Shown here: in pieces, positions 28,843 through 30,249 of the stretch
Layout: each line of letters starts with the position of its first letter
Numbering within the stretch: position 1 is the first letter of the stretch
Source of the DNA: Escherichia phage slur07
Direction: 5' to 3' (one strand)
Length of the DNA stretch: 64,000 bases
Sequence record: NC_028780.1
Position numbers and translations under genes: made by a program
Notes under the pieces: model-generated
The model's input: the letters and a program-made list of their open reading frames with translations, nothing else
Databases searched by the model: none
What the model was told of the DNA's origin: nothing

Positions 28843-28915
28843 TGGGAATTAGCCAAGTTGGTAAGGCACTGGATTTTGATTCCAGGATGCAAAGGTTCGA
28901 GTCCTTTATTCCCAG
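28843..28915 (+). tRNA. tRNA-Gln (anticodon UUG)
   Basis: Cloverleaf by eye: acceptor TGGGAAT/ATTCCCA, anticodon stem CTGGA/TCCAG with loop TTTTGAT, T-arm AGGTTCGAGTCCT. Confidence 0.75.
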
Positions 28916-28916
28916 C

Positions 28917-29003
28917 GCGAGAATGGTCAAATTGGTAAAGGCACAGCACTTAAAATGCTGCGGAATGATTTCCTTGTGGGTTCGAGTCCCACTTCTCGCA
29001 CCA
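28917..29003 (+). tRNA. tRNA-Leu (anticodon UAA), CCA encoded
   Basis: Acceptor GCGAGAA/TTCTCGC, anticodon loop CTTAAAA, long variable arm, T-arm GGGTTCGAGTCCC, 3' ACCA. Confidence 0.75.
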
Positions 29004-29008
29004 AATTT

Positions 29009-29082
29009 GCGGATATCGTATAATGGTATTACCTCAGACTTCCAATCTGATGATGTGAGTTCGATTCTCATTATCCGCTCCA
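29009..29082 (+). tRNA. tRNA-Gly (anticodon UCC)
   Basis: Acceptor GCGGATA/TATCCGC, anticodon loop CTTCCAA, T-arm GAGTTCGATTCTC, 3' TCCA. Confidence 0.75.
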
Positions 29083-29128
29083 ATTTATGACTCGTCGTGA
29101 GACGCTCAGTTCTTTATTAGGGACTGAT

Positions 29129-29737
29129 ATGCATTTTTATCTTTATAAAATAACAAATAAAATTAATAATAAAATTTATATTGGTGTGCATTCTACCGAA
29201 AATTTAGATGATGGATATATGGGTTCTGGTAAATTATTAAAAAGAGCCCAAGATAAATATTGTATAGAAAATTTTTCTAAAGAAATATTAGAGTATTTTG
29301 ACGATAAAGAATCTATGCTTGAAGCCGAGAAAAATATTGTCACAGAAGAGTTTTTAAATAGACCAGATGTGTATAATTTAAAACTTGGAGGTGAAGGTGG
29401 ATGGGATCATATAAATAATTATCCTATGACAGATCAGCAACGCGAATTAATTTCATTGGGTGTTAAAAAGGCACATTCTAACGGAAAATTAAAAGGATGG
29501 TCTTCAAATGGATTAATGAAGAATGGCTTTGCTGGTAAAACTCATTCTCAAGAAGCTAAACGTAAAATAGCAAAAGCAAACGAAGCAAAAGTTTCTGCGG
29601 ATGAAAGAAAAAGAAGAATAGAAATTTCTAAATTATATGATTTTTCTAAACGTGGCGAATTGTCTAAATATGCTAAGCATATTGGCGTAAGTCATACTCA
29701 AGCAAAAAGAATTCTAAATCAAATTAACAATATATAA
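29129..29737 (+). CDS. segB: GIY-YIG homing endonuclease, SegB-like
   Basis: 202 aa from ATG 29129 (MHFYLYKITNKINNKIYIGVHST...GYMGSGKLL); GIY-YIG motifs; sits inside the tRNA cluster as T4 segB does. Confidence 0.8.
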   Translation: MHFYLYKITNKINNKIYIGVHSTENLDDGYMGSGKLLKRAQDKYCIENFSKEILEYFDDKESMLEAEKNIVTEEFLNRPDVYNLKLGGEGGWDHINNYPMTDQQRELISLGVKKAHSNGKLKGWSSNGLMKNGFAGKTHSQEAKRKIAKANEAKVSADERKRRIEISKLYDFSKRGELSKYAKHIGVSHTQAKRILNQINNI

Positions 29738-29740
29738 ATA
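29733..29740 (+). promoter_or_regulatory. TATAAATA motif immediately upstream of tRNA-Ser
   Basis: Exact late-promoter octamer at the segB 3' end, 4 nt before tRNA-Ser; could be chance in AT-rich DNA. Confidence 0.3.
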
Positions 29741-29743
29741 TTT

Positions 29744-29833
29744 GGAGGCGTGGCAGAGTGGTTTAATGCACCGGTCTTGAAAACCGGCAGTCGCTCCGGC
29801 GACTCATAGGTTCAAATCCTATCGCCTCCGCCA
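29744..29833 (+). tRNA. tRNA-Ser (anticodon UGA)
   Basis: Acceptor GGAGGCG/CGCCTCC, anticodon loop CTTGAAA, long variable arm, T-arm AGGTTCAAATCCT, 3' GCCA. Confidence 0.75.
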
Positions 29834-29839
29834 GTTTTT

Positions 29840-29915
29840 GCTGATTTAGCTCAGTAGGTAGAGCACCTCACTTGTAATGAGGACGTCGGCGGTTCGATTC
29901 CGTCAATCAGCACCA
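29840..29915 (+). tRNA. tRNA-Thr (anticodon UGU)
   Basis: Acceptor GCTGATT/AATCAGC, anticodon loop CTTGTAA, T-arm GGTTCGATTCC, 3' ACCA. Confidence 0.75.
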
Positions 29916-29916
29916 A

Positions 29917-29991
29917 GGCCCTGTAGCTGGAAGGTTCAAGCAAGCGACTCATAATCGCCAGATGGTGGTTCAATTCCACCCAGGGCCACCA
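29917..29991 (+). tRNA. tRNA with CAU anticodon (Ile2-type as in T4, or Met)
   Basis: Acceptor GGCCCTG/CAGGGCC, anticodon loop CTCATAA, T-arm GGTGGTTCAATTCCACC, 3' ACCA; D-arm pairing imperfect. Confidence 0.65.
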
Positions 29992-30003
29992 AATTATGAA
30001 TTA

Positions 30004-30090
30004 GGGGAGTTATCCCGTAGAGGTAGCGGTGTGGACTGTAAATTCATTGTCATTGCGACTCGGGTGGTTCGACTCCACCACTCCCCACCA
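30004..30090 (+). tRNA. tRNA-Tyr (anticodon GUA), class II with long variable arm
   Basis: Perfect 7-bp acceptor GGGGAGT/ACTCCCC, anticodon loop CTGTAAA, variable arm TGTCATTGCGACTCG, T-arm GGTGGTTCGACTCCACC, 3' ACCA; D stem and anticodon stem contain GU or mismatches. Confidence 0.6.
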
Positions 30091-30094
30091 ATTT

Positions 30095-30169
30095 GGATGT
30101 GTAGCTCAATGGCAGAGCGATCGCCTGTTAAGCGATTGGTTATAGGTTCGAATCCTATCACGTCCGCCA
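30095..30169 (+). tRNA. tRNA-Asn (anticodon GUU)
   Basis: Acceptor GGATGTG/CACGTCC, D-arm GCTCAATGGCAGAGC, anticodon stem ATCGC/GCGAT with loop CTGTTAA, T-arm ATAGGTTCGAATCCTAT, 3' GCCA. Confidence 0.7.
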
Positions 30170-30173
30170 AATA

Positions 30174-30249
30174 CGAGGCATAGCTCAGAAGGAAGAGCAA
30201 GGACCTTCTAAGTCCTGGGTCGTAGGTTCGATCCCTACTGCCTCGACCA
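30174..30249 (+). tRNA. tRNA-Arg (anticodon UCU)
   Basis: Acceptor CGAGGCA/TGCCTCG, D-arm GCTCAGAAGGAAGAGC, anticodon stem AGGAC/GTCCT with loop CTTCTAA, T-arm GTAGGTTCGATCCCTAC, 3' ACCA. Confidence 0.75.

Follow-up and report, generated by a model that had tools for sequence, protein, structure and literature searches.

The 64,000-nucleotide (nt) stretch from Escherichia phage slur07 that was analysed (sequence record NC_028780.1; hereafter "the window") contains a T4-like operon with nine transfer RNA (tRNA) genes, in which a free-standing homing endonuclease gene occupies the place of the gene for tRNA-Pro. On solid sequence evidence this gene appears to be a chimera, consisting of the leader and catalytic module of a SegB endonuclease joined to a DNA-binding module of the lineage found at the Gly|Pro site of Jiaodavirus phages. 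We assign a probability of roughly 80% to the reading as a whole, namely that a T4-like operon of codon-supplying tRNAs has acquired a chimeric homing endonuclease gene, which replaced tRNA-Pro and homes at the Gly-Pro junction of related phages. The architecture of the chimeric and relocated enzyme is well founded in the sequence; the specificity proposed for it is a deduction. The tRNA cluster as such is already known, since about 50 GenBank records contain annotations of the same layout, endonuclease gene included, and parts of it are covered by the literature on T4 and T2L (Brok-Volchanskaya et al. 2008, PMC2330249) and on T6 (Chihara et al. 2026, PMC13096335). Its value for comparisons lies in the combination of a SegB catalytic module with a foreign DNA-binding module, a new site, the precise loss of tRNA-Pro and the retention of the target of T4 SegB. 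It should thus be a natural test case for the question of how GIY-YIG endonucleases change their targets, and of how they remodel the tRNA repertoires of phages, anti-defence tRNAs included.

The endonuclease gene and its site

The gene and its leader comprise the following features:

29129-29737, + strand: free-standing GIY-YIG homing endonuclease gene, 202 amino acids (aa) (Pfam, PHROG, alignments)
29129-29413, + strand: catalytic half, SegB-type (alignment to T4 and T6 SegB)
29414-29734, + strand: DNA-binding half, not SegB-type, with a weak NUMOD3 match (alignment, Pfam)
29083-29128, + strand: leader of the endonuclease gene, 46 nt (RNAfold, -14.5 kcal/mol)
29093-29104, + strand: small hairpin CGTC-GTGA-GACG in the leader (sequence)
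29106-29127, + strand: hairpin of 9 base pairs (bp) in the leader, with the Shine-Dalgarno sequence AGGGA in its 3' arm (RNAfold; also found in the terminator/hairpin scan)

The open reading frame (ORF) matched the Pfam domain GIY-YIG (PF01541) with 26.8 bits (cut-off 22.6) and PHROG 314, "homing endonuclease", with an E value of 1.7e-52. A BLASTP search against all Seg proteins of T4 gave SegB as the top match (E 4e-67), with an alignment ending near SegB residue 117. The two halves of the protein were compared in a four-way alignment of the window enzyme, T4 SegB, T6 SegB and the endonuclease of the Klebsiella phage Mineola (Jiaodavirus), the ATG at 29129 being taken as residue 1. In the catalytic domain (residues 1-95), 93 of 95 positions agree with T6 SegB and 90 of 95 with T4 SegB. 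The motif residues Y17-I18-G19 are intact; mutation of Y17 or G19 abolishes the activity of T6 SegB (PMC13096335). The C-terminal half shares 17 of 98 residues with T4 or T6 SegB, which agree with each other in 119 of 126 residues of this region, and 63 of 103 with the Mineola enzyme, rising to about 88% in the last 45 residues. In the catalytic half, just 69 of 95 residues are shared with Mineola. At the nucleotide level, positions 29143-29417 correspond to nt 15-289 of T4 segB with 98.9% identity (blastn) and the similarity stops at 29417; the 5' half has 97-99% identity to T4 and T6 segB. With Jiaodavirus genes, the 3' half shows 85-92% identity, and the 5' half together with tRNA-Gly just 73%.

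A domain exchange, in either direction, would explain these values. By analogy, the architecture is modular enough for such an exchange: I-TevI, encoded in the td intron of T4, likewise consists of an N-terminal GIY-YIG domain and a separate C-terminal DNA-binding region with NUMOD3. Sequence similarity to I-TevI is low (24% over 108 aa, E 0.002), and in contrast to this intron-encoded enzyme the window enzyme is free-standing and has no evident zinc finger. A sequence search of the PDB with the endonuclease gave no significant match. The first-pass annotation had described a segB-like GIY-YIG gene which splits the tRNA array; the domain assignment is borne out by Pfam and PHROG, but the likeness to SegB is confined to the catalytic half, and segB of T4 is located between tRNA-Ile and tRNA-Arg. 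The gene differs from segB proper in its unrelated C-terminal half, in its position, which is not upstream of tRNA-Arg, and in the presence of the 27-nt SegB target in tRNA-Asn (see below). The annotators of phage RB18 saw part of the chimera, as the GenBank note for the endonuclease reads "C-terminus divergent"; in the literature, no description of a chimeric, relocated endonuclease of the SegB family was found.

Two start codons were considered. The ATG at 29087, which would give 216 aa and is annotated as the start in RB18 and AR1, was set aside: it lies 4 nt past tRNA-Gly, has no ribosome-binding site, and corresponds to GTG in Mineola. Preference was given to the ATG at 29129, which coincides in the alignment with Met1 of both T4 and T6 SegB and with the annotated start in Mineola, and is preceded at a distance of 5 nt by the Shine-Dalgarno sequence AGGGA (29119-29123). 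The 46-nt leader is common to T6 segB and the Mineola endonuclease gene; the leader of T4 segB is different. In T4 segB a hairpin covers the ribosome-binding site (PMC2330249, PMC2988022), and the 9-bp hairpin in the window could be its functional analogue in spite of the different sequence, with a comparable regulatory role. The stop codon (29735-29737) lies 6 nt ahead of tRNA-Ser, so that maturation of the 5' end of this tRNA would trim the mRNA right behind the ORF.

The gene orders of the window and of the phages used for comparison are:

Window: Gln Leu Gly (seg) Ser Thr CAU Tyr Asn Arg rnaD rnaC
T4: Gln Leu Gly Pro Ser Thr Ile (segB) Arg rnaD rnaC
T2: Gln Leu Gly Pro Ser (T2_137) CAU Tyr Asn Arg (T2_136)
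T6: Gln Leu Gly Thr CAU Tyr (segB) Arg
Mineola (Jiaodavirus): ... Trp Gly (seg) Pro ...

On the left side, homology to T4 and T2 extends through tRNA-Gly and 5 nt beyond, ending ...CCAATTTA; on the right side it returns 1 nt ahead of tRNA-Ser. A cassette of 655 bp thus stands in for the 80 bp which carry tRNA-Pro and its spacers in T4 and T2. No tRNA-Pro was predicted by ARAGORN or Rfam anywhere in the 64 kb, and T4 tRNA-Pro with its spacers, used as a blastn-short query, gave only a 13-nt match to the T arm inside tRNA-Ser; these searches over the whole window exclude a tRNA-Pro at another location as well as a remnant of it. The absence of tRNA-Pro from the place of the endonuclease gene, suspected in the first-pass annotation, was therefore confirmed. 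In Mineola and other Jiaodavirus phages the endonuclease gene likewise follows tRNA-Gly, with the same leader and a related C-terminal half, but tRNA-Pro is kept: the Mineola cassette lies within the Gly-Pro spacer, and its stop codon is inside an intact tRNA-Pro. Similarity of the window to Mineola ends at AATCAAATTA, followed by a 17-nt AT-rich filler up to tRNA-Ser. The 3' half of the endonuclease gene is joined to tRNA-Ser in the same way in 53 of 53 carrier records, and this uniform fusion suggests one ancestral event in Tequatrovirus.

Between carrier and endonuclease-free alleles tRNA-Gly is identical (74/74), and tRNA-Ser differs from that of T4 at 3 of 90 positions. With so few changes in both neighbours, the missing 80 bp are the clearest difference that could protect a carrier from its own enzyme. 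The likeliest target, by deduction, would be the Gly-Pro spacer together with the 5' part of tRNA-Pro, because Mineola keeps tRNA-Pro. The gene is accordingly pictured as a selfish, free-standing homing gene with a predicted activity of the following kind: in mixed infections the enzyme probably cuts Gly-Pro-Ser alleles, such as those of T4 and T2, at or close to the Gly-Pro spacer or tRNA-Pro; during repair of the break, the endonuclease gene would be copied into the cut allele; and tRNA-Pro would have been lost in the lineage of the window during homing or soon after.

The window also contains a target of the original SegB:

30145-30171, + strand: intact 27-bp preferred site of T4 SegB, GGTTCGAATCCTATCACGTCCGCCAAA, at the 3' end of tRNA-Asn (by comparison with PMC2330249)

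T4 SegB is described as recognising 27 bp at the 3' ends of tRNA genes (GGTTCRANTCC ... CCAR), with a preference for tRNA-Asn of T2L, RB1 and RB3; according to the same account, G6, A16, G18, A26 and A27 distinguish the preferred site in T2L tRNA-Asn from the weaker site in tRNA-Ser (PMC2330249). In the window, the counterpart in tRNA-Ser, GGTTCAAATCCTATCGCCTCCGCCAGT, differs from the 27-mer of tRNA-Asn at exactly positions 6, 16, 18, 26 and 27. The presence of an intact SegB target beside a SegB catalytic domain would be easier to reconcile if the new C-terminal domain directs the enzyme elsewhere. The site also predicts that, in a mixed infection, SegB of T4 or T6 would cut the window phage and convert it.

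The distribution of the endonuclease gene is patchy, with about 53 of about 990 matching phage records containing it; T4, T2 and T6 are without it at the Gly/Ser site. Some copies, namely those of RB51, RB68 and vB_SsoM_113, are annotated as truncated. In T2, a gene for a protein of 133 aa (T2_137; T2 region 2309-2710) is located between tRNA-Ser and the CAU tRNA, in the place of tRNA-Thr. T2_137 shows similarity only to the DNA-binding half of the window enzyme (33% identity, E 2e-15), a GIY-YIG domain being absent; it is probably what is left of an endonuclease gene which took the place of tRNA-Thr.

tRNA genes and codon usage

The whole window was searched with ARAGORN, with inspection of the cloverleaf for each call, and with the general tRNA model of Rfam (RF00005, gathering score 29 bits). 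ARAGORN found exactly nine tRNA genes in the 64 kb, all of them on the + strand and inside 1.4 kb; they are the same nine, with the same anticodons and positions, that the first-pass annotation had proposed. Eight of the nine were also found with RF00005, at 59-74 bits and E values of 1e-10 to 1e-14 for the whole window, which is far beyond chance. The genes, all called by ARAGORN, are:

28843-28916, + strand: tRNA-Gln(UUG); Rfam 67.4 bits; CCA not encoded
28917-29003, + strand: tRNA-Leu(UAA); Rfam 59.3 bits; long variable arm; 87/87 identical to T4 and T6
29009-29082, + strand: tRNA-Gly(UCC); Rfam 65.8 bits; 74/74 identical to T4 and T6
29744-29833, + strand: tRNA-Ser(UGA); Rfam 62.6 bits; long variable arm, CCA encoded; 90/90 identical to RB18, 87/90 to T4
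29840-29915, + strand: tRNA-Thr(UGU); Rfam 73.5 bits; 75/76 identical to T4
29917-29991, + strand: tRNA with CAU anticodon, labelled "Met" by ARAGORN; Rfam 59.9 bits
30004-30090, + strand: tRNA-Tyr(GUA); long variable arm; imperfect D and anticodon stems
30095-30169, + strand: tRNA-Asn(GUU); Rfam 74.1 bits; 75/75 identical to RB18
30174-30249, + strand: tRNA-Arg(UCU); Rfam 65.8 bits; T2/RB18 type

The genes for tRNA-Tyr and tRNA-Asn are additional in comparison with T4, whose layout is without both, as had been noted. Their standing had been made dependent on acceptance by tRNA prediction software: both were accepted by ARAGORN and tRNA-Asn also by Rfam, but tRNA-Tyr was missed by the Rfam tRNA model. 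It is the only one of the nine below the threshold, and its top match was to the model for tRNA-Sec (30.9 bits), which corresponds to its shape with a long variable arm.

Imperfect stems in the Tyr and CAU tRNAs, reported in the first-pass annotation, were indeed visible in the ARAGORN cloverleafs. The CAU tRNA has a D stem of 3 bp and an A27-C43 mismatch; in tRNA-Tyr the D stem is interrupted by a C-C mismatch, and two pairs of the anticodon stem are G-U. The tRNA-Tyr is identical in 87 of 87 positions to tRNA-Tyr of T6, which was detected on a northern blot, is less stable than the host tRNA, and overcomes the Septu defence upon overexpression or amplification (PMC13096335). The lower stability of the T6 molecule fits the mismatches seen here. 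Of the suggestion that both tRNAs are "atypical or partly degenerate", the first part can be upheld for tRNA-Tyr, which fell below the Rfam threshold; degeneracy is not borne out, in view of the identities of 87/87 with T6 for tRNA-Tyr and 75/75 with RB18 for the CAU tRNA. As far as can be judged from its sequence, tRNA-Tyr is thus atypical in shape, not degenerate.

The identical CAU tRNA gene of RB18 is annotated as tRNA-Ile. It shares only 47 of 75 positions with T4 tRNA-Ile and is a separate allele. Its best matches in E. coli (5412 genomes) were genes annotated as tRNA-Ile, with 76-82% identity over the full length. The acceptor stem GGCCCUG contains C4-G69 and C5-G68, the pairs which set tRNA-Ile2 apart from tRNA-Met for lysidine synthetase (TilS determinants). 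The gene is best read as a tRNA of the Ile2 type, which would decode AUA with C34 modified to lysidine. Codon usage supports this assignment, since ATA is enriched 4.9-fold and ATG is not enriched. An elongator tRNA-Met, as in the ARAGORN label, was rejected on the basis of the tRNA-Ile matches, the comparison of alleles and the usage of ATA and ATG.

For codon usage, 92 non-overlapping ORFs of the window (19,060 codons) were compared with 42 genes of E. coli K-12 (14,832 codons). Frequencies in the phage relative to the host sample, and the tRNAs of the operon which would read the codons, were:

AGA: 9.0x; Arg(UCU)
ATA: 4.9x; CAU tRNA as Ile2
GGA: 3.7x; Gly(UCC)
TCA: 3.6x; Ser(UGA)
ACA: 3.6x; Thr(UGU)
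AAT: 3.3x; Asn(GUU)
ACT: 3.1x; Thr(UGU), by wobble
TTA: 3.0x; Leu(UAA)
TAT: 2.6x; Tyr(GUA)
CCA: 1.6x; no reader (tRNA-Pro absent)
ATG: 0.85x; not enriched

For seven of the eight codons with the highest enrichment, the operon supplies a direct cognate tRNA, and ACT would require wobble reading by tRNA-Thr(UGU). The tRNAs would thus add decoding of the A/U-ending codons AGA, AUA, GGA, UCA, ACA, AAU, UUA and UAU, which are much more frequent in the AT-rich phage than in E. coli. The enrichment of AAT and TAT, for which a comparison with the host had been proposed along with the additional tRNAs, means that codon demand explains tRNA-Asn and tRNA-Tyr. The modest enrichment of CCA may be the reason why the loss of tRNA-Pro was tolerated.

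Two of the other tRNAs differ from their T4 counterparts in a conspicuous way. The nine differences between tRNA-Gln of the window and of T4 are all situated in the anticodon arm, and the remainder is identical. The anticodon stem is CUGGA/UCCAG in the window and UAGCA/UGCUA in T4, the changes being paired; the loop is UUUUGAU in the window and CUUUGAC in T4, with differences at positions 32 and 38. This allele of the anticodon arm could be related to evasion of anticodon nucleases or to recognition by GlnRS. Both forms of tRNA-Gln are common: the form of the window is present with at least 99% identity in 289 phage records, and about 235 records lie in the band of 80-90% identity, those sampled (T4 included) having 87.8-89.2%. 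tRNA-Arg is identical to that of RB18 in 75 of 76 positions and to that of T4 in 50 of 76; its 5' 30 nt are unlike those of T4, and homology to T4 picks up again at 30204, within the gene (blastn).

Alternative explanations and possible consequences

The endonuclease gene could perhaps be an ordinary orthologue of segB which moved within the cluster and retained the specificity of T4 and T6 SegB for the T arm and 3' end of tRNAs. This would agree with the 90-93 identical residues of 95 in the catalytic half, with the start of the cassette just past the CCA-A end of a tRNA, which is the cutting preference of SegB (PMC2330249), and with GenBank records where the gene is labelled segB or SegB-like. 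It appears distinctly improbable nevertheless, considering the C-terminal half, which should bind DNA by analogy with I-TevI and has only 17 of 98 residues in common with SegB, the end of nucleotide similarity to T4 segB at 29417, the intact SegB site in tRNA-Asn, and a relative with the same C-terminal domain at the Gly|Pro site in another genus. According to another explanation, the gene is a decaying or domesticated relic which does not home, and tRNA-Pro was lost by an unrelated neutral deletion. The truncated copies in some phages, the single fixed junction to tRNA-Ser in all 53 carriers, which is consistent with one old event, and the AT-rich filler of 17 nt instead of a clean junction could be understood in this way. 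We consider a relic unlikely, since the ORF in the window is of full length with the GIY/YIG motif residues intact, the Shine-Dalgarno sequence and the putative regulatory hairpin are kept, the 5' half is more similar to the active T4 and T6 segB genes (97-99%) than the flanking tRNA DNA (96%), which suggests a recent exchange, and a patchy occurrence, here in about 5% of related genomes, is what mobile endonuclease genes typically show.

For the tRNAs, the notion that the Tyr and CAU genes are degenerate pseudogenes could draw on the stem mismatches in both and on the score of tRNA-Tyr below the Rfam gathering score; it is hardly credible in view of the identity of tRNA-Tyr to an expressed and functional T6 tRNA (PMC13096335), the identity of the CAU tRNA to that of RB18, its 59.9 bits and its location in a block 98.5% identical to T2, and the encoded CCA and intact acceptor and T arms of both. 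More weight must be given to the idea that tRNA-Tyr and tRNA-Asn are kept mainly against host defences which cleave tRNAs, and not for codon supply. The tRNA-Tyr is the same molecule that in T6 also offsets defences destroying tRNA-Tyr: Septu cleaves tRNA-Tyr, and T6 tRNA-Tyr restores infection in its presence (PMC13096335); retron-Eco7 is overcome by tRNA-Tyr of T5 (PMC11555353). Furthermore, the tRNAs for Tyr, Asn and, in RB18, His all have G34-U35 in their anticodons. On the other hand, the enrichment of AAT and TAT accounts for both tRNAs; a single copy of T6 tRNA-Tyr protects only partly, as Septu also cuts the phage tRNA-Tyr (PMC13096335); and a literature search for a defence countered by a phage tRNA-Asn gave only a negative result (PrrC170). 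Defence as the main reason for their retention thus seems somewhat unlikely, although the two roles are not mutually exclusive. Tandem amplification of tRNA-Tyr and segB, driven by SegB, was shown for T6 only (PMC13096335); a T6-like SegB adjoining tRNA-Tyr is absent from the window, where the endonuclease gene has a different C-terminal domain and is separated from tRNA-Tyr, downstream of it, by about 270 bp with three tRNA genes.

Several points weigh against the preferred explanation of a chimeric gene which replaced tRNA-Pro and homes at Gly-Pro alleles in an operon of codon-supplying tRNAs. The target was deduced solely from the position of the gene and the missing segment. Since Mineola keeps tRNA-Pro beside its endonuclease gene, the target cannot be wholly inside tRNA-Pro, unless the Mineola tRNA is a resistant variant. 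T4 SegB is reported to cut many tRNA genes in vitro (PMC2330249), and with such relaxed specificity a good SegB site would not be strictly incompatible with a SegB-like enzyme at low expression. The 100% identity of the C-terminal domain in many records could be due to recent ancestry and not to selection for function. The host sample for codon usage was one 50-kb segment of K-12, and stands for neither the whole genome nor tRNA abundances. Finally, the promoter described below was assigned by eye and by homology alone.

More tentatively, and with somewhat less than even confidence, we suggest that the joining of a SegB catalytic module to a DNA-binding module of the Gly|Pro site has retargeted the enzyme from tRNA-Asn to the Gly-Pro junction, and that rival elements of this kind shape the tRNA content. 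If this were true, the operon of T-even phages would have at least two rival elements of the SegB family, each of which erases the tRNA gene bearing or adjoining its own target, namely tRNA-Asn in T4 and T6 and tRNA-Pro in the lineage of the window; T2_137 may be a third, decayed copy, which replaced tRNA-Thr. Which tRNA genes are present would then depend in large part on competition between homing endonucleases, and not on codon demand alone, and phages of the T4 type and the RB18 type should be expected to convert each other's allele in mixed infections.

Relatives, operon ends and neighbouring genes

The genome belongs to Tequatrovirus, within the lineage of RB18, AR1 and "nbeco"; a region of 2 kb is 98.7% identical to vb_EcoM_bov9_1 (Tequatrovirus nbeco). 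The 2-kb query matched 993 phage records, of which 52 cover at least 80% of it. Read in reverse orientation, T4 from about 101.5 to 36.2 kb is collinear with the window as a whole, and the T4 cluster occupies the same slot, between trna.2-4/ipI and e.8. Alignment with T4, as suggested in the first-pass annotation, confirmed a structure of blocks and the replacement of tRNA-Pro (blastn):

28737-29087: Gln, Leu, Gly; 96.3%
29743-29936: Ser, Thr and the first 20 nt of the CAU tRNA; 95.9%
29937-30203: no match
30204-30598: 3' part of Arg, rnaD, rnaC, terminator; 89.9%

The block from the CAU tRNA to tRNA-Arg (29917-30249) is 98.5% identical to T2. T4-like and T2-like blocks together mean that the operon is a mosaic. 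In comparison with T4, the window lacks tRNA-Pro, has its endonuclease gene at Gly|Ser instead of Ile|Arg, contains Tyr and Asn, and differs in the alleles of the CAU tRNA, of tRNA-Arg and of the tRNA-Gln anticodon arm. With T2 and T2L it shares the order CAU-Tyr-Asn-Arg, the 27-mer in tRNA-Asn included (PMC2330249), whereas T2 keeps tRNA-Pro, is without tRNA-Thr, and has no intact endonuclease gene. With T6 it shares the identical tRNA-Tyr and, at 97% of nucleotides, the leader and catalytic domain of the endonuclease gene (PMC13096335); however, T6 segB follows tRNA-Tyr and has a C-terminal domain of the T4 type, and T6 is without Pro, Ser and Asn.

The same layout as in the window, with the endonuclease gene annotated and 98-100% identical, is present in RB18, AR1, KIT03, vb_EcoM_bov9_1 and about 50 other Tequatrovirus records. 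RB18 and AR1 contain in addition a tRNA-His(GUG) between Asn and Arg and an ORF of 351 bp after Arg (RB18 region 3078-3602, AR1 region 3084-3608); the window and bov9_1 are alike in having neither. The set of tRNAs therefore varies even within the sub-lineage of RB18, AR1 and the window.

At the ends of the operon the following features were found:

28747-28773, + strand: putative MotA-dependent middle promoter (read by eye; homology to T4)
30254-30370, + strand: homologue of rnaD (T4 species 2 small stable RNA), 102 matches over T4 positions 4-119 (116 nt)
30377-30515, + strand: homologue of rnaC (T4 species 1 small stable RNA), with a tRNA-like 3' end, 137/139 identical to T4
30566-30598, + strand: intrinsic terminator, stem of 10 bp with 7 G-C pairs, GAAA loop and T run (terminator scan)

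The putative promoter consists of a MotA box, TTTGCTTTA, at 28747-28755, a spacer of 12 nt and the -10 sequence TATTAT at 28768-28773, and lies inside the block 28737-29087 with 96.3% identity to T4. The tRNA cluster of T4 is described as being transcribed from a middle promoter just upstream (PMC2330249). A scan for the sigma-70 consensus did not yield more hits than shuffled sequence did, and none of them was upstream of tRNA-Gln. An Rfam search of 30250-30600 gave nothing, rnaC and rnaD having no Rfam family. T4 rnaC is followed by the same terminator sequence as in the window. Probably a single transcript extends from the MotA-type promoter near 28750 to the terminator; it would hold the nine tRNAs, the endonuclease mRNA, rnaD and rnaC, and would be cut into mature RNAs by the tRNA-processing enzymes of the host.

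The location in a T-even operon is also evident from the flanks, which are collinear with T4 and 90-97% identical to it, and from homologues of trna.2 and e.8 annotated in near-identical records. The SegB-family gene was the only homing endonuclease gene identified in the window, where ORFs specific to the window were not screened. In comparison with T4, segC, mobC, mobB and the nrdD intron with I-TevII are missing (around 20745, 56537, 57825 and 62320), and the place of mobD (44790-45751) contains two unrelated ORFs, at 44771-45292 and 45295-45756. The operon is flanked by two ORFs of unknown function, at 28232-28756 (174 aa, PHROG 2290) and 30644-31117 (157 aa, PHROG 2280); both are absent from T4 and present in RB18, AR1 and phages of the RB32 type.

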